Under the pieces are notes generated by a model, which was not told the DNA's origin, searched no databases, and saw only the letters and a program-made list of their open reading frames with translations. Positions 3,138 through 54,923 of a stretch of DNA of 64,000 nt are shown here, piece after piece. The translations under genes and the position numbers were made by a program. Origin of the DNA: an uncultured Candidatus Saccharibacteria bacterium. GTDB lineage: Bacteria > Patescibacteriota > Minisyncoccia > UBA6257 > UBA9933. How positions within the stretch are numbered: the stretch's first letter is position 1; each line of letters opens with the position of its first letter. The stretch lies in NCBI GenBank assembly GCA_964642155.1, contig CAZXNT010000001.1, forward strand, positions 65,238 through 129,237, written 5' to 3'.

Positions 3138-5047
3138 TGCAATATTATGTTATCGCTGAATGTGTTTGAATAAGCGTTTGCCGCGTTGCGGAACCTCACA
3201 TAAACCGTTTTTAATCCGGCTCCGGCCGTTAAGGTCCAATTTCTCGTCGTTGAATAAGCTTCCCAAAAAGAGTTAAAGAAAACTATATCATTGGAAATCA
3301 TCATTTCCGTAACATTAACTATCCCGGAAGTGCTGGAAGCGGCGTTTAATCTTAATACTATATTGACATCCGTGGTTGTGTCCGCTCCGTCATTTATCGC
3401 AATCGGAGCGCTGCAAACCGCCAATCTTGCTGAAACAGCGCTGTTTTGAGCAATCGCGGCATCTAATCTGGCTTGCGCGTCTCTTATCGGGTCGTAAGTT
3501 GGATTAGTAATTTGTCTATTGGTCATATTCTGATTGCTTCTATTTATAAACTCGTTATAACGTTCTAAAATTACCGACCATGCCGCCGTGTCTGACGGGC
3601 TAGTCGCTCTAATGTCATTAATCAGCTGGTCGGCTTCCGATTGAGCGTCGCCTTGAGCCAAAAGATTGTCCACTTCGCTTTGAGCTGTTGCGATTTCATT
3701 CGCGCCGACTGAACATCCGCGAGATTGCATATCTTGAAACATCGCGAGTGTTGAACTTGCGTAAACTAATGTTTCTTGAGTTATGGATGACGTATCAACG
3801 CCTATGCCATTAGCCGCCGCCCTTCTAACTTCACCAATCATCATTTCTTTATCTTGCCCCTGCTCGCTCGCCCTCATATCGGCATATTCTTCGGGATAAT
3901 AATCCGGTTCCGCGTCCTTGTCCGATTCTTTCATTTCAGATAAACCTTTTTCCAATAACCGGTTAATCACTGCGTTAACCAAAGCCGAAACCCAAGAGCT
4001 GATATTGGCGGCCCATGCCGAATCGGTTGTAATGGCGCTGCCAACCGCGTCGCCAACAAGAGCGCCGGGCGTGGTTGTTTCCATATTCTTCGGGTCGCAA
4101 TACGCTCCGGTTGTGTCTTGTTTATAACCTTTATCACCCATCTCTTTATCAAATTGACCCCTTTTTTCTACACCCTTATCACTTTGCTCCCAATCTTTCA
4201 CGCATTTATTATAATCATCCTGCTTTTTTTTCACCGTTGCCTCATCATCAGTTCCCTTAAAAATTGGACTAGCGCACGCAGAATCAGAGTTTGCAGTAGC
4301 ATCCCAAGTAGTTCCCCCTCCTCCAGGTTGAACCTTGCCTTTATAATCCTTAGAAAATTCTGCCTCTTCTGCCGTCTTTTTACACCTTTCCACTCCTAAA
4401 AATCCTTTGCCTGACAACGCTTTTTGGCCGGCGACTTGAACTGCTTTGGCTTGTTTAAGCATTTTTTCGTCTTGTATCATCAGTGCCGCGCCGAAAAAAT
4501 TATTTTGCGGCTCCCAACTCGCCAAATATCCCTCCCAACCACCGACTGAAAAATCAACATAAAAATCCTTAATGTTTTTCACGGCTTTATCCAAGGTGCA
4601 AGAAACTCTCTGGCTGAATTTCGGCACCGGCAAAAACGCCAATTTCAATTGCAAACCGAACGGCGAACAAAGGTCCGCCAAAAGAAGGTCTCTTGATATG
4701 GATTCAAAAGCAATATCGCCGGCGTCTTTCAAAAATCCGTCCCAATCGGTTATAAATTTCGGGTCGCCGCCGCCCTGAACCCATTTGACGGTTTGGTCAA
4801 CGATATAATCTATAATGCGTTTAGCAACGATATCGCGCATCACTTCTTTCCAATTTGTTTTTATCCATTCAAATATACTTCTCCCTAACTTTCCAGCAAG
4901 TATTAGGAAATCAGTAACTATGTTTGAAAATGCCGCTTCCGCCTTATTAGGAGTCAATTTAAAAAATCCGGTTCTTAAAAATCCCGGGGAATTAAAAACC
5001 AGCAGAAAAATAATTAGAAAAATTATTGTTTTAGAAAAAAAGTTCAT
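3134..5047 (-). CDS. large secreted hypothetical protein (637 aa)
   Basis: N-terminal signal peptide MNFFSKTIIFLIIFLLVFNS. Cys-rich, Asp/Lys-rich middle region. Translationally coupled to its neighbours (ATGA overlaps at both ends). Confidence 0.5.
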   Translation of the reverse strand: MNFFSKTIIFLIIFLLVFNSPGFLRTGFFKLTPNKAEAAFSNIVTDFLILAGKLGRSIFEWIKTNWKEVMRDIVAKRIIDYIVDQTVKWVQGGGDPKFITDWDGFLKDAGDIAFESISRDLLLADLCSPFGLQLKLAFLPVPKFSQRVSCTLDKAVKNIKDFYVDFSVGGWEGYLASWEPQNNFFGAALMIQDEKMLKQAKAVQVAGQKALSGKGFLGVERCKKTAEEAEFSKDYKGKVQPGGGGTTWDATANSDSACASPIFKGTDDEATVKKKQDDYNKCVKDWEQSDKGVEKRGQFDKEMGDKGYKQDTTGAYCDPKNMETTTPGALVGDAVGSAITTDSAWAANISSWVSALVNAVINRLLEKGLSEMKESDKDAEPDYYPEEYADMRASEQGQDKEMMIGEVRRAAANGIGVDTSSITQETLVYASSTLAMFQDMQSRGCSVGANEIATAQSEVDNLLAQGDAQSEADQLINDIRATSPSDTAAWSVILERYNEFINRSNQNMTNRQITNPTYDPIRDAQARLDAAIAQNSAVSARLAVCSAPIAINDGADTTTDVNIVLRLNAASSTSGIVNVTEMMISNDIVFFNSFWEAYSTTRNWTLTAGAGLKTVYVRFRNAANAYSNTFSDNIILQ

Positions 5048-5883
5048 TTGATTTCCAACGCTTTTTCTTTATATTCTTGTTGAATTTTAAATTCCTCGTC
5101 AACCATATCAGGAATCATCTGCACTAATAAATCCGCTCTTATCGGGTCTTGCTTAAAAACCGTTATTCCCCGATATAAATTTTCAAATTTTTTAAACAGA
5201 ACCAAATATCTTTTATGAAGAGCAAGCCAATCAGAAGGAACCTCCGTATTTAAAAACCCGTTGAACATATTTTGATAAGTGTCGGCAAGATTATTGGCTT
5301 TGGAAATATCTCCGACAATCAAACTCTCTAAAACTTTAATCGGATTTTTATAAAGATTGTTTGAATTATTATAAATTATATTGATGGTCGCTTCAAGATA
5401 AATCATCTTCTTTTGGGAAGAATTATCGGAAGAAATTTTTAAATCTTTGTCGCTAATGGAATAATTTTCCAACAAAAGCGACGGGTCGCTGATTTTGGCG
5501 AGCGTTTGCTTAATCAACTCCTGTCCTTCCTGGCTTTGCGGGTCAAAACCGCTTGAAGGGTCAATACCCCTTTGGTCTAAATCTTTCATTTGCGTAAACA
5601 TTGATTGAGCGACAAATTCCGTTAAATTAATCTGATCGGCAACTTGGCTATTATTTAAATTTTCCGCCTGCCTGCTGGTAGGTATGGCCTTAATTTTTTG
5701 AAAATTATCTTTCACCCATTGAAGCGGATTCTTGCCGACCAAATCAACAAAATTTCCGGAAAAACCGTCCTTTGATTTCGCGCCGTCCGGTTTAATTCCG
5801 GCGCCGGATTTAACAATAAAATACGCTCCGACCAAACCGGCAATAATGATAAAAACCGCTTTTGCGGAAATAAATTTTTTCAT
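5044..5883 (-). CDS. membrane-anchored hypothetical protein, first gene of the operon
   Basis: Likely start is MKKFISAKAVFIIIAGLVGAYF (signal-anchor) at 5883. The ORF-track extension to 6189 has no start-like context and would overlap the plus-strand gene. Confidence 0.45.
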   Translation of the reverse strand: MKKFISAKAVFIIIAGLVGAYFIVKSGAGIKPDGAKSKDGFSGNFVDLVGKNPLQWVKDNFQKIKAIPTSRQAENLNNSQVADQINLTEFVAQSMFTQMKDLDQRGIDPSSGFDPQSQEGQELIKQTLAKISDPSLLLENYSISDKDLKISSDNSSQKKMIYLEATINIIYNNSNNLYKNPIKVLESLIVGDISKANNLADTYQNMFNGFLNTEVPSDWLALHKRYLVLFKKFENLYRGITVFKQDPIRADLLVQMIPDMVDEEFKIQQEYKEKALEIK

Positions 5884-28649: not shown

Positions 28650-29522
28650 CTACTTACAAAGACAGAGAAATGGATGAGCGCAGTCATATACATAAGTTGT
28701 ACCACATCCAACATTTAATACAGCATTACTCTCGCCAAAATATAATGTAGCTTCGCATGTTTTTCCAATTTGAGAACATTTAGTGGCGCAACTTACATCG
28801 CGACAAGTCCATTCTGAAAAAAGAGCTCCTCCGCCTGCTGTGGTTTGTGTCGTGTTATCTGGAAATTTGAAACCGCCAGCGGTACTGTGAATTGTGCCGG
28901 CAACTTCTAATTTGCTATTTGGTATAGTCGTACCGATGCCGACGTTGCCGTTTTCTAAAATTGTTAGGGTTTTAGTAGTCACAACACTGCTTACATATCT
29001 AGTAATATCAAAATCTCCAGAAGTGCCGCTTGATCCCATCTTCCAGCCGTGGATACCTCCAGCGCCGTTATTTTGCGCAAGAAAAATCTGATTCTTAGTG
29101 CCAAGAGAAGATTCTACAATTTCTAACTTATATGCAGGCGCCGTCGTCCCAATACCGACGTTGCCATTTTTTATGGTCAAAACATCTGAGTTATTATTAT
29201 TGATGATTAAGGCGGAATCGGTGCCGAGTTTGAATAAAGTGGAAGTGGCTGATTGTCTGGATAATTTAAGCACAGAATCGGAAGAAGTGGAGTAGATTTC
29301 CATTTTAGCGCCGGGATATAAGGTACCGATACCGATATTATTGCTGGAATCGGAATATAAGGTCTGGCCAGCTGGATTGGGAGGAATAGTAGTAGGGGCA
29401 TTCCAACTAAAAACTAATTTAATAATAATTGTGATTAAGAAAAGAGCGGCGAAAAATAAAGATGAATAAAAGAAGGGTTTTTGGTGATTTTTTTTGAAAA
29501 ATAAAATAACAGCCCGCGCCAA
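28650..29522 (-). CDS. secreted repeat protein with tail-fibre-like GNVGIGTT.P..KLEV repeats and a Cys-rich C-terminus
   Basis: Hydrophobic N-terminus. Three repeats NVGIGTTAPAYKLEI / NVGIGTTIPNSKLEV. The start is read as TTG directly after the (CT)n tract. Confidence 0.5.
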   Translation of the reverse strand: MARAVILFFKKNHQKPFFYSSLFFAALFLITIIIKLVFSWNAPTTIPPNPAGQTLYSDSSNNIGIGTLYPGAKMEIYSTSSDSVLKLSRQSATSTLFKLGTDSALIINNNNSDVLTIKNGNVGIGTTAPAYKLEIVESSLGTKNQIFLAQNNGAGGIHGWKMGSSGTSGDFDITRYVSSVVTTKTLTILENGNVGIGTTIPNSKLEVAGTIHSTAGGFKFPDNTTQTTAGGGALFSEWTCRDVSCATKCSQIGKTCEATLYFGESNAVLNVGCGTTYVYDCAHPFLCLCK

Positions 29523-29526
29523 TTTA

Positions 29527-29551
29527 CTCTCTCTCTCTCTCTCTCTCTCTC
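29527..29551. repeat. (CT)12 dinucleotide microsatellite immediately 5' of the start of 28650..29522
   Basis: Read directly from the sequence (ctctct...c, 25 nt). Confidence 0.9.
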
Positions 29552-29660
29552 GGATTGTGATTATTGATGAATTTCATAATATTATAGTCACTAGCATTAT
29601 AAATTATTATTATACTCTAAATTATTTTATTTAGTAAATCTCTGTATTTTAATTTTTTTA

Positions 29661-50223: not shown

Positions 50224-50314
50224 AATTTATAAAATTTAACACAGGTTAAAATAAAAAACAAGGGCAGTAAAAAAGTTTTGTTTGCAAAGAAGAAGAGGGC
50301 GCGAAAGGGACTCC

Positions 50315-50710
50315 CTATAAGATTTTTGAATACTCTTGATAATTTTTTCTTACCACCGCTTTCCAACTTGCGGTTTCGTTTTCACCCCCTAAATCATTTT
50401 TACTATATACCAATAAAACACGGACGGTTGAAGTGTGTTTATGAACAGCGATAATGCACCTATTGCCGGAAGCGTGTCTAGACTCTTGAGTTCCATGCAC
50501 ACGGAACTCTGTTTTGCAAACCCTTACATCCCCAGCTTCAGTAATGGTTTCTGCTATGTTTGTTTGCCCGATCAATGTATCAATGCGCTTAAACTCCTCG
50601 TGCATAGCAGTCCAAGTTACATCCCATGCCCCTTTATGCTTCTTTTTAAATTTAGAGATAAAGTGTCGTTCCGCGTATCGTTCTATAATAACCGTATAAT
50701 TAGTAAACAT
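50315..50710 (-). CDS. putative toxin partner of the HTH-Panacea antitoxin (family not recognised)
   Basis: 131-aa ORF overlapping the upstream antitoxin-like gene by 11 bp. GC-rich relative to its surroundings. Confidence 0.4.
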   Translation of the reverse strand: MFTNYTVIIERYAERHFISKFKKKHKGAWDVTWTAMHEEFKRIDTLIGQTNIAETITEAGDVRVCKTEFRVHGTQESRHASGNRCIIAVHKHTSTVRVLLVYSKNDLGGENETASWKAVVRKNYQEYSKIL

Positions 50711-51377
50711 AATCGGGGTCCTGTTGAGTTATCAATTCATACGGAATCATTTCATCTGGAGCGCAGAGTTTGTAGGGTAACTGTTCGTGAGTAAAATCAA
50801 TAATTTCTTGAGTTCTTTTATTTTTCCACTTTGTGGATATTTTTTTCATTAAATTAACTTCTTCGGTTTTAAGAAAATCAAGTTTTTGGTGTTGCGCGCC
50901 CGCGCCAATAAGAATGGCGCCACCCTTATAATCAACAGTTATTTTCCCTTCCTCCTCAAGCTCTGCAAGCGCTCTGAAATACGAATCGGGCACAGGACCA
51001 TACGTTCGGCGCAAATATTGCATCCCGCTCATACTCTCAAGATTCGTGTAATACCACGCGAAATCAGCCAAATAGAGAAGCTTGGCTAATTTAGTTTTTG
51101 GAACTTTTCCGTCAGTAGAAATTGAAGATTTAAGAAAAGCAATAATCATTTGCTTATATTTTTCATACTTTGGCAAAGTGGCTTTTGCAAATTCTTCGAT
51201 AGAAATGCCGAACAGATTTTTTAACTTCTGCGCTTCATCTAGGGTGAGACCCCTGTTCCCGCGCTCAATGGCTACATATGAAGGACGGGAAAGCCCCAAT
51301 TTATCCGCGACAAAAGACTGCGAAAAATCCCGCTCTGTTCGAAGAGCTTTTATAAATTGCGCATATTTATTAATCAT
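50700..51377 (-). CDS. HTH (XRE-family) plus Panacea/DUF4065-domain protein, putative antitoxin
   Basis: N-terminal Cro/C1-type HTH (FVADKLGLSRPSYVAIERG). C-terminal KLAKLLYLADFAWYY resembles the DUF4065 signature. Confidence 0.55.
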   Translation of the reverse strand: MINKYAQFIKALRTERDFSQSFVADKLGLSRPSYVAIERGNRGLTLDEAQKLKNLFGISIEEFAKATLPKYEKYKQMIIAFLKSSISTDGKVPKTKLAKLLYLADFAWYYTNLESMSGMQYLRRTYGPVPDSYFRALAELEEEGKITVDYKGGAILIGAGAQHQKLDFLKTEEVNLMKKISTKWKNKRTQEIIDFTHEQLPYKLCAPDEMIPYELITQQDPDYVY

Positions 51378-51481
51378 ACTAGAAGTATATTTATGTATGT
51401 AAAAAAGTCAAGCATTAAGTGTTGATAAATTTTACATTTAAAAATTAAGGTTGTAAGATAACGGCGACGATCATCCTTTGG

Positions 51482-52294
51482 TCATGGACGCCCTAGTGGA
51501 AATGCCCGAGGCGCAAATGCCCTTATGTTTGCCCCTCCTACCCCTTTTGCGCGCACAGAGAAACGCTCCCGTCCTTTCAAACTATACTTAAAAACATCGT
51601 TCACTTCTCGAATATTTTTATTTGCTTCTTTTACATATATAGGTTGAACTTCTGTTCCTAAATAATTTCTTCTATGTAATAAAGCAGCTACGGCAGTGGA
51701 ACCCGAACCCATAAATGGGTCCAAAATAGTATCTCCTTCTTTGCTGAAAAGTCGCATGAACCACGAAGGTAATTCAATTGGAAAAACAGCGCTATGATTT
51801 TTTCTCGAAGAGGATTCGACAGCTGATTCAAATATATTACTCAAATACAATCTATGTTCTTCTTCAAAAACTATTACATTATGCGGGAAAACCTTTTTCT
51901 TATTAAGCCAATTTGAAACATTGCGACCTAAATGAGAATTGTTTTTAGAAATGTGTCTGACAAAATCATTTTCGCTCATTGATTTAAAACGCTTCTCTGC
52001 CCAGCTCCCAATTGGAACCTTAACCGCATCTTGATACATTTTGAAATCTTTTTGCTTTGTGAATTGTAAACAACATTCCCATGAATCACGAAACCGATTG
52101 GGCCATTTTCCAGGGAATGAATTTTTCTTATACCAACAATACTCTTCGATCCAAAACCATCCTTGCTTTTTCAATTCCAAAATTAACTCCAGAACATAAG
52201 TTTCTCGCTCACCATTTTTGGGATGTTCTTTTATATTGAGAATAAATAAACCATCGTCTTTTAGTACTCTGTAAAGTTCTTTTGTGATCGGCAA
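51482..52294 (-). pseudogene. N-4/N-6 DNA methyltransferase (PF01555-like), N-terminally truncated and lacking the DPPY motif
   Basis: C-terminal SAM motif DPFMGSGSTAVAA and RVLKDDG block are present. The frame is closed by an upstream stop about 30 codons before TTG, with no DPPY/NPPY. The sortase gene's 3' end occupies the expected N-terminal coding region. Confidence 0.5.
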
Positions 52295-52371
52295 AAACCA
52301 CTGAACATATTTATCTGGATGAGTACCACCATACGATTTTTTTCTTTTTTCCCGACGGGGTTTGTATTTTG

Positions 52372-53007
52372 TTATTCTTTATCAGTAAAAACTATGAGTC
52401 GATCAGAACGAGTTTTCTCGGCCTTATTCCAAACTCCCGCGCAAGTAATAAGGTTAAGGTGCGCTTTTCCGTCACTTGAACCAAATACATCCGAGGCATC
52501 CGCGTTCTTGTCATATCTCCGAATTTCGCGCACAACAAAAGTAACAATCGCCCCTTTTTCATTTTCAATATACATTTTATCACCTTTGCGTATTTTATGT
52601 AAATTATCAAATACTGCCGGTATATCATTTTTCCAGCCATAGTGCCCGGCAATAACAGAACTTCCGTTTTCTCCGGGGCGCGGGCCGAGATTAAACCACG
52701 CTACCCCAATAGGACCTTTAGGCACGTCCATTGCTCCGTCGGATGTAAGACCTACATACTCGACGGAGGCATCAACCTTTATACTTGGAATTTTGAGATG
52801 CACCGGAAGTCCCATACCCCCTTGTTGCTGGGTCAGTATTTGGGATAATTGCTGCTGAAGCTGGACTATCTGTTGTTGAATCTGGGTAATTAATGTTTGA
52901 AGTTGGCTGTCAGTCATTCGCTGAGCCTTTACGACAAGGTTCGGCGATAATAAAAAAAACACTACTATAAATAATAAGATTGATAAACTCTTTCGGAAAA
53001 ATTTCAT
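52372..53007 (-). CDS. sortase (TLITC active site) with N-terminal TM and Gln-rich coiled coil
   Basis: Catalytic His (VIAGHYGW), Cys (LNLITCAG) and Arg (TRSDRLIVF). Signal-anchor MKFFRKSLSILLFIVVFFLL. Confidence 0.75.
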   Translation of the reverse strand: MKFFRKSLSILLFIVVFFLLSPNLVVKAQRMTDSQLQTLITQIQQQIVQLQQQLSQILTQQQGGMGLPVHLKIPSIKVDASVEYVGLTSDGAMDVPKGPIGVAWFNLGPRPGENGSSVIAGHYGWKNDIPAVFDNLHKIRKGDKMYIENEKGAIVTFVVREIRRYDKNADASDVFGSSDGKAHLNLITCAGVWNKAEKTRSDRLIVFTDKE

Positions 53008-53113
53008 ATTTTTATAGTTTAATTACTTTATTTATTATACTACAACCAAAAACTACTCATAAAAGGTGGCTATAGAAAATACGCAGGCAAAAGAAGAAAA
53101 AGATAACTAATAC

Positions 53114-54355
53114 CTACTTAACACTAGGAGGAAAACCTGTATTTGGCAGTTTTATCATTGCTGAGAGTTGAGCTTGAAGTAATTGTACTAATTGCTGCAT
53201 CAGAGGAATGAGCTGTTGTTTAATCTGGTTAATCTGGGCTAAAATCTGCTGGTTTGATACAGGTGTCGGTGTCGGTGTCGGAGCTACTGTTAGTACAACC
53301 ACAGGAGTTGAGGTTGGTGTTGGTGTTGGGGTAGGGGTAGGGGTAGGTGTTGGTGTTGGTTGGGTAACATTAACCACCACACTGTTCGACGCACCAGCAC
53401 AATTTATTGAATACGTTGTATTTGATGTCGGTGAAACGCTAACACTTCCTGAAATAGCATTTCCTGTTGAGAAGTTGGTACCAGAACAACTTGCCGCATT
53501 TGAGCTTGACCACGATAGGGTTGACGAATTACCACTTATGATTGAGGTTGGATTTGCTGAAATTGTTGCTGTTGGGGTTGGTGGTGGAGTAACGGCAACA
53601 ATTGGCTTGGTAACAGTGTTTGCATCTAACGTAGCTGCGGTCTGTGCGAGTGCCCTGCCGTTTAGCGTTGCACCGGTGTTCAGCACAATTGCTGTTTGAT
53701 CCAATATATTTCCATTAAAGACAGCTGTCGTTCCAAGTGTCGTTTGGCCAGCAACCTGCCAGAAGATGTTAGCGGCCTGCGCACCGCCACTCAGGACAAC
53801 CTGCACAGCGGAACTCACAGTGAGATTTTGCGCTATCTGAAATATCCAAACATCATTGGCACCGCCCGAGAGAGTGACATTCGTTGGTATTGTCACGCCG
53901 GTACTCCATTTATAAAGTCCCGGAGCTAATGTCATTCCGCCAATATTTCCCGCACCCAATTCAGTCGCAGTCGGATTTGTTCTCCCCGCGGCATCAGTGT
54001 ACGCGGTTTCCATGTCACTTACCGCTGTAGTCATTGTAGCTGGAGTAGGAGCCGTATAGTCGGCTGCATATACTTTTCCGGTTACTATGGCTGATGTCGA
54101 AAATGTATTCGAAGCGTCCAGTATTAATCCGAATCCAGTTATGGCAGTCGCGGCGATTGGGCTCACTCCAATATCTCCAGTAATTGAGGTATTTCCGGTG
54201 GTTGAGATCCCCGACTTCGTTAGAATCACGAAATTGCCTGCTGATCCGAGATTTACTGTCGCTGGACCTGCAGCAAGCACAGCCATTGGCCCGGTGAGAC
54301 CAAACATAAATGCAAGACCTAATACAACCACTAAACCCTTGTTAAATTTTTTCAT
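53114..54355 (-). CDS. surface protein with DUF3494 (ice-binding-like) domain, Ig-like domain, PT linker, Gln-rich coiled coil and C-terminal LPNTG
   Basis: LGSAGNFVILTKSGISTTGNTSITGDIGVSP matches the DUF3494 signature. (PT)n linker. The ORF ends KLPNTGFPPSVK. Confidence 0.7.
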   Translation of the reverse strand: MKKFNKGLVVVLGLAFMFGLTGPMAVLAAGPATVNLGSAGNFVILTKSGISTTGNTSITGDIGVSPIAATAITGFGLILDASNTFSTSAIVTGKVYAADYTAPTPATMTTAVSDMETAYTDAAGRTNPTATELGAGNIGGMTLAPGLYKWSTGVTIPTNVTLSGGANDVWIFQIAQNLTVSSAVQVVLSGGAQAANIFWQVAGQTTLGTTAVFNGNILDQTAIVLNTGATLNGRALAQTAATLDANTVTKPIVAVTPPPTPTATISANPTSIISGNSSTLSWSSSNAASCSGTNFSTGNAISGSVSVSPTSNTTYSINCAGASNSVVVNVTQPTPTPTPTPTPTPTPTSTPVVVLTVAPTPTPTPVSNQQILAQINQIKQQLIPLMQQLVQLLQAQLSAMIKLPNTGFPPSVK

Positions 54356-54454
54356 ATATTTTATTTATTTATTATTTTGTTAATGACTTTTATTGGTGGC
54401 AAGTATGGTCGACTACATACATGTTCCAATAATCGATTATTTTTTACGACCTTT

Positions 54455-54500
54455 ATTATAGTTTACCCCCCCCCCCGATAATTTTGCAATGTGTATTAAG
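54455..54500 (-). promoter_or_regulatory. candidate promoter with a G12 homopolymer (C12 on the plus strand, 54466-54477) between a TTGCAA -35-like hexamer and a perfect TATAAT
   Basis: Minus-strand read: TTGCAA aattatc G12 taaac TATAAT, about 95 nt upstream of the start of 53114..54355. Confidence 0.45.
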
Positions 54501-54815
54501 TCCACCCCTTTCATATCTCAGTGTTAGCCGCCGAAAATCCAAAAACAAAATCAGTCTCGGTTTTGCCAAATCCCTTCTCCCAGAAAATAGTTTTGGCAAA
54601 ACCGAGTCCGCATTAGTTCCGCCACACTGCCCAAATACTTGGAGAGCAGAACCTCGAAAAAAAATGTCTTTTCTTTTTTAAAAGAAATTGGTCGCGCGCA
54701 AATCCGAAAATGCGAACAAAACTTTTCTGTGGTGTGGCGAGCGTTAGCGAGCGGCGGCGGGGCGGGTCAGTTGTTCCGCTCAAAATGGGTTCGTGCATTT
54801 TCAAACAAAGGGCAG

Positions 54816-54890
54816 TGTCCTCGACAGGAATCGAACCTGTACCGCCTCCTTCGGAGGGAGGCATTGTATCCATTCAACTACGAGGACTTA
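54816..54890 (-). tRNA. tRNA-Arg (anticodon CCG)
   Basis: Reverse complement has acceptor stem GTCCTCG/CGAGGAC, anticodon stem CCTCC/GGAGG with loop CTCCGAA, and T-loop TTCGATT. Confidence 0.75.
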
Positions 54891-54923
54891 GCAATCTAAT
54901 TCTGAATTTATAATTCTAAATTA

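Follow-up and report, generated by a model that had tools for sequence, protein, structure and literature searches.

A poly-G tract in the promoter spacer of a DUF3494 gene as a candidate phase-variation element in Patescibacteria

Is the long run of G residues that precedes a gene for a DUF3494 protein in an uncultured Patescibacteria genome a phase-variation switch? The gene lies in a 64-kb stretch of contig CAZXNT010000001.1 (hereafter the window, meaning the whole stretch of DNA that was analyzed, to which all positions refer unless a related locus is named), and the run occupies the spacer of a putative promoter, P1. Homopolymers placed within promoter spacers are textbook devices of phase variation in host-adapted pathogens (Neisseria, Bordetella, Haemophilus, and Mycoplasma), and bacteria of the candidate phyla radiation (CPR) are generally regarded as living on the surface of other cells, attached to them. 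We consider it probable, at roughly 0.6, that the poly-G in the P1 spacer confers slippage control of the type known from porA of Neisseria meningitidis on the DUF3494 gene and, probably, on the sortase gene that follows it.

A homopolymer between two conserved hexamers

The elements that make up the P1 region are the following.

54484 to 54489, minus strand: TTGCAA, the putative -35 hexamer of P1; TGCAA is invariant in 9/9 aligned upstream regions, and the first base is T in eight and C in one
54477 to 54483, minus strand: AATTATC, the spacer portion outside the homopolymer; L162 has the identical sequence, L080 has AATTATT, L160 has AGTTATC, and a second lineage has TAAGTGTC in its place
54466 to 54476, minus strand: G11 homopolymer (C11 on the plus strand) by direct count, making up the 11 nt nearest the -10 in a spacer of 18 nt
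54460 to 54465, minus strand: TAAACT, the putative -10 hexamer of P1; TA(A/T)ACT is invariant in 9/9 aligned regions
54455 to 54460, minus strand: TATAAT, overlapping TAAACT by one base and lying 23 nt from TTGCAA; unconserved and probably not the -10 hexamer

Read 5' to 3' on the minus strand, the order is TTGCAA (54489-54484), AATTATC (54483-54477), G11 (54476-54466), TAAAC, and TATAAT (54460-54455), the last of which ends 99 nt before the ATG of the DUF3494 gene (54355). An earlier sequence-only reading had named TTGCAA, a poly-G, and TATAAT on this strand, and all three are present. It had counted 12 G residues at 54466-54477, where we count 11 at 54466-54476; because the homopolymer is G11 and not G12, TTGCAA and TATAAT are separated by 23 nt and not by 24.

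The tract is an outlier in its surroundings. The G+C content of the window is 37%, and its G/C runs are 1 to 5 nt long except for this single run of 11, against a first-order Markov expectation of ~0.011 runs of at least 11 nt per window; at least three matches to G9 arose in 1 of 100 dinucleotide-preserving shuffles. Within the run-length spectrum of the window, the G11 tract is beyond chance, and its length falls in the range for slipped-strand mispairing (about 8 G/C residues or more). When the C11 was read on the plus strand, no conserved open reading frame (ORF) or feature using the tract was found. Another assembly covering the locus, Logan SRR13723396 (L001), possibly derived from the same sample or reads, has G11 as well; this was the one further contig returned by an exact-protein look-up for length variants in the same strain.

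Upstream regions of relatives were gathered by protein-guided searches of genomes, metagenomes, and assemblies, and nine homologous regions, with L163 kept in as an outlier, were aligned (alignment A1). Five look-ups (P0081, P0098, P0071, P0052, and P0084) led to DUF3494 genes with unrelated upstream regions. TGCAA and TA-AC-T are the only invariant blocks of the alignment, and conservation further upstream is poor. The first hexamer, spacer composition, spacer length, and second hexamer of each region are given below.

Window: TTGCAA; AATTATC + G11; 18 nt; TAAACT
L162: TTGCAA; AATTATC + G11; 18 nt; TAAACT
L080: TTGCAA; AATTATTGTGGGGAAGT; 17 nt; TATACT
L160: TTGCAA; AGTTATCCGGGAAGGGG; 17 nt; TAAACT
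L002: TTGCAA; TAAGTGTCGAGGAGGGG; 17 nt; TATACT
L081: TTGCAA; TAAGTGTC + G10; 18 nt; TAAACT
L159: CTGCAA; TAAGTGTC + G8; 16 nt; TAAACT
L161: TTGCAA; TAAGTGTC + G7; 15 nt; TAAACT
L163 (more distant, found via P0057): both hexamers; no homopolymer; 15 nt; TGG before TAAACT, making an extended -10

We infer that the two invariant hexamers are the -35 and -10 elements of a sigma-70-type promoter and that the functional -10 is TAAACT, which directly adjoins the G tract, and not TATAAT, which extends 5 nt further downstream. TAAACT retains the key bases of a -10 hexamer, A at position 2 and T at position 6. A spacer of 18 nt follows from this assignment, one above the 17 nt of the non-homopolymer relatives, and the promoter as assembled thus appears near optimal and not crippled. 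TTGCAA-18-TAAACT agrees with the Escherichia coli consensus at 8 of 12 positions, four in each hexamer, with a spacing in the 16- to 18-nt range. As a bare pattern, TTGCAA-N16-18-TAWACT is not significant: it occurs once in the window against 0.13 expected, and at least once in 12 of 100 shuffles. Promoters of the sigma-70 type are also seen at tRNA genes of the same genome (TTGAAA-16-TATAAT at tRNA-Gly and TTGTCG-16-TATAAT at tRNA-Leu), and these, together with the conservation of the hexamers, support the assignment of P1 to this class. A conserved A(A/G)GGTC motif is found immediately 3' of the -10.

Between these fixed hexamers, the length of the homopolymer differs among relatives: G11, G10, G8, or G7. 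The tract is interrupted in L002 (GAGGAGGGG), L080 (GTGGGGAAGT), and L160 (CGGGAAGGGG), and the spacer is G-rich in all relatives. Homopolymers occur with both spacer prefixes, AATTATC and TAAGTGTC, and each of these lineages also includes an interrupted member, which implies at least two independent gains or losses. The non-homopolymer close relatives (L002, L080, and L160) each have exactly 17 nt to TAnACT, corresponding to 22 nt to the TATAAT position. Spacers of 18 nt result from the three longest short-read-type tract alleles, and one of 16 nt from L159. These lengths are all functional ones, consistent with selection favoring a majority state in which the gene is expressed. In its length, its position between the hexamers, and its length polymorphism within conserved flanks, the tract has the sequence-level attributes of a contingency locus. 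The core of the sequence-only reading, a slippage-prone poly-G in the promoter spacer of a surface-protein gene, is thus supported by the comparison of relatives.

We propose that the G tract would slip in single-base steps during replication, by slipped-strand mispairing. Each slip would alter the -35/-10 spacing by 1 nt and by ~34 degrees of twist and so change promoter strength, and the outcome would be a heritable, reversible, and stochastic "volume control" of the surface protein, as at porA. The expected states, with the spacer obtained by arithmetic and the strength by analogy, are as follows.

G10: 17-nt spacer, expected to be optimal
G11 (as assembled): 18-nt spacer, expected to be slightly weaker
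G12 to G13: 19- to 20-nt spacer, expected to be weak
G8 or fewer: spacer of 15 nt or fewer, expected to be weak

The model further supposes a useful rate of slippage and expression that tracks tract length.

Downstream genes and repeats at other surface-protein genes

Two genes on the same strand would be controlled by P1.

53114 to 54355, minus strand: gene for a DUF3494/ice-binding-like secreted protein of 413 aa (Pfam PF11999; translation)
52372 to 53007, minus strand: sortase gene (Pfam PF04203, E = 4.4e-22), the next gene after the DUF3494 gene

The match of the first protein to PF11999 (DUF3494/Ice_binding) spans profile positions 1-208 of 208 (E = 1.4e-80, 270 bits), and the protein combines a signal-peptide-like N terminus, PT-rich linkers, and a C-terminal KLPNTG, so that the DUF3494 and LPNTG labels given to it earlier were well chosen. 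Two marks of a sortase substrate, an LPXTG motif near the C terminus and a cognate sortase gene, are present. The sortase gene is directly downstream of the DUF3494 gene in L002, L080, L159, L160, L161, and L162, and further downstream, behind a second DUF3494-like gene, in L022 and L026; in the window, the two genes are probably co-transcribed. The genes most closely related to the DUF3494 gene belong to Patescibacteria metagenome-assembled genomes (MAGs) from groundwater. The host is a Patescibacteria member resembling Wolfebacteria: the PNPase encoded in the window shares 90% identity with one named Candidatus Wolfebacteria, and its other named matches are Patescibacteria or Parcubacteria.

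Repeats near DUF3494 genes are not confined to P1. Among 152 non-redundant loci (696 kb) selected by DUF3494 protein homology alone, 4/6 G/C runs of at least 8 nt lie within -350 to +60 of a DUF3494 start, a zone that makes up 11.8% of the sequence (binomial P = 0.0024). In L022 (JBAYHV010000002.1, a Paceibacterota MAG), a paralogous DUF3494 gene has a C9 tract (2968-2976) within the part that encodes its signal peptide. In the assembled sequence, a stop follows the first 11 codons read from the ATG; with C8 or C11, signal peptide and domain would both be complete.

Two other tracts, at non-homologous positions upstream of DUF3494 genes, enter only the enrichment statistic: a G10 in L026 (2673-2682, ~320 nt upstream) and a G8 in L025 (2144-2151, ~130 nt upstream). 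The L026 tract lies between TTGGCT and CATACT (19 nt); after it come a gene for a small membrane protein and then the DUF3494 gene. We do not rely on this arrangement.

The window itself holds a second repeat at a surface-protein gene, a perfect (GA)12.5 at 29527-29551 (minus strand). The repeat occupies part of the 5' coding region (MKFINNHNP(RE)n...), between an ATG at 29577 and an ORF at 29522..28650, and translation as assembled ends after 17 codons. With a GA repeat of 27 or 21 nt, the ATG would be in frame with the coding sequence of a 290-aa protein that is membrane-anchored and bears fibre-like GNVGIGTT repeats, and the product would total 309 or 307 aa. Homologues either have (RE)2, (RE)3, or (RE)5 at the repeat position or have been annotated with a start inside the gene. 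This gene looks like a classical translational phase-variation locus, and repeat-controlled surface genes so appear to recur in this genome and its relatives. It is followed on the minus strand by three ORFs of similar size (~177 aa) and a gene for a 1505-aa PKD/LTD protein.

The leader and the region upstream of P1 contain the following features.

54356 to 54453, minus strand: predicted 5' leader, its start placed ~7 nt after TAAACT from promoter geometry
54374 to 54402, minus strand: promoter-like site P2, TTGCCA-17-CAAAAT (9/12 in a consensus scan), inside a leader insert
54556 to 54606, minus strand: terminator-like hairpin, a 15-bp stem followed by a U-rich run (predicted RNA fold of -35.3 kcal/mol, z = -3.66)
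54815 to 54887, minus strand: tRNA-Arg(CCG), the same-strand upstream neighbor (ARAGORN and Rfam)

Relative to L002, the terminator-like hairpin shows a single compensatory change (C:G to G:C). It would shield P1 from the tRNA-Arg gene that lies upstream; because it separates the two, the DUF3494 gene would need a promoter of its own. It forms the end, with its U-run, of a conserved, relatively GC-rich non-coding stretch of ~255 nt that begins right after tRNA-Arg (54540-54815, minus strand). This stretch may represent an extended tRNA trailer that includes a terminator, or else a small RNA not yet recognised; Rfam, at gathering and at permissive thresholds, returned the tRNA only, the rest being chance matches of microRNA models to the hairpin.

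The leader insert of ~55 nt (within 54356-54420) is common only to the window and L002, and the leaders of L162, L081, L159, L080, and L160 are ~36-50 nt long. At the P2 position, L002 has TTGCAA-17-CTAAAT. The P2 -35 region of L002 (ACTTGCAATAA) repeats the -35 region of P1, which suggests a partial promoter duplication in that locus.

The DUF3494-sortase region as a whole looks variable and island-like. The cassettes adjoin tRNA genes in most related loci (50300-54900 in the window; L080, L081, L160, and L162). In L170, whose PNPase is 87% identical, the whole cassette is absent, and a tyrosine-recombinase/integrase gene stands beside rpsO instead. In L002, the closest relative, a perfect 352-nt inverted repeat (2118-2469 and 4958-5309) brackets a 2.5-kb segment comprising an XRE-HTH gene, the promoter, the DUF3494 gene, and the sortase gene; its arms are 81-83% identical to the ~255-nt stretch that the window has in single copy between tRNA-Arg and the promoter. 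Inverted repeats flanking the cassette were found only in L002, with none in L080, L081, L160, or L162, and the L002 segment may be an invertible or mobile cassette.

Downstream of the sortase gene, on the minus strand of the window (50315-52294), lie genes for an N6/N4 DNA methyltransferase and an HTH+SocA/Panacea antitoxin-like protein and a 131-aa ORF; no restriction-enzyme gene was recognised among the window ORFs scanned. If the methyltransferase gene were co-transcribed from the tract-controlled promoter, it would be phase variable as well. DUF3494 domains 65-85% identical to that of the window are found in MAGs labelled as archaea (Methanoregula, Woesearchaeota, and Micrarchaeota), Chloroflexota, Spirochaetota, Proteobacteria, and others (loci L020-L079), a spread that reflects either wide horizontal transfer or mis-binning.

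Weighing the alternatives

Several observations weigh against slippage control at P1. The consensus promoter scan, with a cut-off of 9/12, did not list P1. P2 lies downstream of the tract and could supply tract-independent transcription here and in L002. G11 is found in both assemblies of the locus (possibly from the same sample) and in the diverged L162, and instability is not visible at the consensus level. The length differences lie between lineages and may reflect slow evolution rather than rapid switching. Some alleles are also of limited quality: L081 has a coverage of only ~4x, and L161, compared with L081, shows 23 gap openings in 1.26 kb and a frameshifted sortase gene, as expected of an error-prone assembly. 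The G7 of L161 is probably a long-read homopolymer error. The comparison of L161 with the near-identical L081, considered as a direct 3-nt length difference, was downgraded in view of the many indels in L161.

The anchoring of the protein raises a further difficulty. The window copy ends with LPNTGFPPSVK followed by TAG (53114-53116, codon 414), six codons after LPNTG (region 53057-53119), and lacks the hydrophobic segment and the positively charged tail of a sorting signal, which is complete in relatives P0005, P0011, and P0044 (LPNTG, LPNTGIGPDEKSIPWNIVIPAGIFA...RRKQT(I/V)). A recent nonsense mutation is suggested, since the 18 in-frame codons after the TAG (VLVIFFFFCLRIFYSHLL) are hydrophobic. 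The protein of the window allele may therefore be secreted rather than anchored, or the allele may be decaying.

Of the competing explanations, the one that survives best, though we still regard it as unlikely, is that the tract is a neutral by-product. Here, an ancestral G-rich spacer would occasionally drift into a pure G run, and selection would only hold the spacing at 16-18 nt, with no meaningful switching. The G-richness of the spacer in all relatives, even where the run is interrupted (GAGGAGGGG, GTGGGGAAGT, and CGGGAAGGGG), is consistent with such drift, as are the 18-nt spacers of all three short-read-type tract assemblies and the shared G11 of the window and the diverged L162; P2 could, in addition, render modulation of P1 unimportant. 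However, a G11 is intrinsically slippage-prone whatever its origin, and homopolymers arose or persisted with each of the two spacer prefixes. The lack of any other G/C run longer than 5 nt in the window speaks against a general mutational bias toward such runs. The enrichment of G/C runs at DUF3494 starts across unrelated MAGs, which includes the frameshifting intragenic C9, and the second variable-number repeat at another surface-protein gene in the window also argue against mere drift.

The sequence-only reading had paired a -35-like hexamer with a perfect -10, TATAAT, across a 24-nt spacer, and held that this length is non-optimal and that contraction would move it toward 17-18 nt. On the model that follows from it, the promoter would be off at present and would be activated by contraction. 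Its -35 has stood up, TTGCAA being conserved, and TATAAT is indeed a perfect consensus hexamer that recurs at the same place in L080. Elsewhere, however, that position reads TATAGT (L162 and L159), TACAGT (L081 and L161), TTATAC (L160), or TATAAG (L002), the last without the critical final T. The non-homopolymer relatives, too, are 22 nt from that hexamer, yet exactly 17 nt from TAnACT. Activation would, moreover, require the loss of 5-6 G residues, which would destroy the slippage-prone tract. With 23 nt to TATAAT by count but 18 nt to the conserved and favored TAAACT, the present spacer appears near optimal, and single-base slips would be enough to modulate it. We consider a promoter held off by an overlong spacer to be improbable.

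More doubtful still is a role of the G-rich spacer in binding or structure that depends on its G content rather than on its length. Its G-richness is conserved in all relatives, and in L002, L159, and L085 the promoter directly follows an HTH gene of the XRE family, whose small product would be a candidate ligand; yet the window has a tRNA gene and not an HTH gene at that position, and the spacer sequence is unconserved beyond its G-richness, with no operator-type palindrome or repeat. Least credible is a sequencing or assembly artefact in the tract or its exact length: homopolymers are error-prone, L161 carries indel errors, and L081 is at ~4x coverage, but G11 is also in the Logan contig (possibly the same sample), four further data sets, each from a different sample, have a tract at the corresponding position, and so precise a placement between two conserved promoter hexamers would be unexpected of an error.

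Known systems and significance

Slippage control of P1 would have its closest parallel in porA. In N. meningitidis, 11 G residues between the -35 and -10 of porA give high surface expression, 10 G residues give 2.2-fold lower expression, and 9 G residues give 13-fold lower expression (PMC3639595). As at porA, and as in the poly-C of opc, a G/C tract of ~9-11 nt here lies between the putative -35 and -10 of a surface-protein gene, and the 11 G residues of porA are matched by the G11 of P1. The differences are several. The porA host is a mucosal pathogen, whereas P1 belongs to uncultivated groundwater Patescibacteria; the gene that P1 would control encodes a sortase substrate containing a beta-solenoid DUF3494 domain and not a porin; the tract directly adjoins the putative -10; and a second promoter is possible downstream.

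Looser parallels exist (reviews cited in PMC5084427 and PMC1891110) in which a simple repeat inside the promoter sets the spacing at a surface-structure gene, as we propose for P1. The vlp genes of Mycoplasma hyorhinis, which encode surface structures, have poly-A promoter tracts, and hifA/hifB of Haemophilus influenzae have (TA)n between the -35 and -10. In Bordetella pertussis, poly-C promoter tracts set the spacing of promoter elements at fim2/fim3. These systems differ from P1 in repeat type or in dependence on an activator (BvgA for fim), no activator being implied here, and none of their hosts is a CPR bacterium. The intragenic simple sequence repeats that shift the reading frame, such as the poly-G of Neisseria lgtG and hmbR, are instead comparable with the C9 of L022 and the (GA)12.5 of the window; unlike them, the G11 tract is upstream of the transcript and would act on transcription and not on the reading frame.

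The mechanism is thus already well known, while the host and the target are new. Full-text literature searches returned no report of phase variation in Patescibacteria/CPR and no paper connecting DUF3494 proteins with Patescibacteria/CPR. A broader generalization, that ultra-small Patescibacteria keep simple-repeat contingency loci (promoter poly-G, signal-peptide poly-C, and 5' coding (GA)n) that vary sortase-anchored DUF3494 and fibre-like membrane proteins, is put forward more tentatively, as a conjecture that we would not yet favor; if it held, no earlier case of programmed phase variation would be on record for the CPR radiation.

Surface proteins of CPR bacteria are the obvious mediators of an attached lifestyle and likely phage receptors. 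A stochastic switch at P1 would amount to bet-hedging on surface composition, a notion with which the two further repeat-controlled surface genes agree. The relation between tract genotype and expression would offer a handle on proteins without known function in CPR bacteria, and in groundwater populations a wider repertoire of such switches, if real, may govern attachment to host cells or the exposure of phage receptors.

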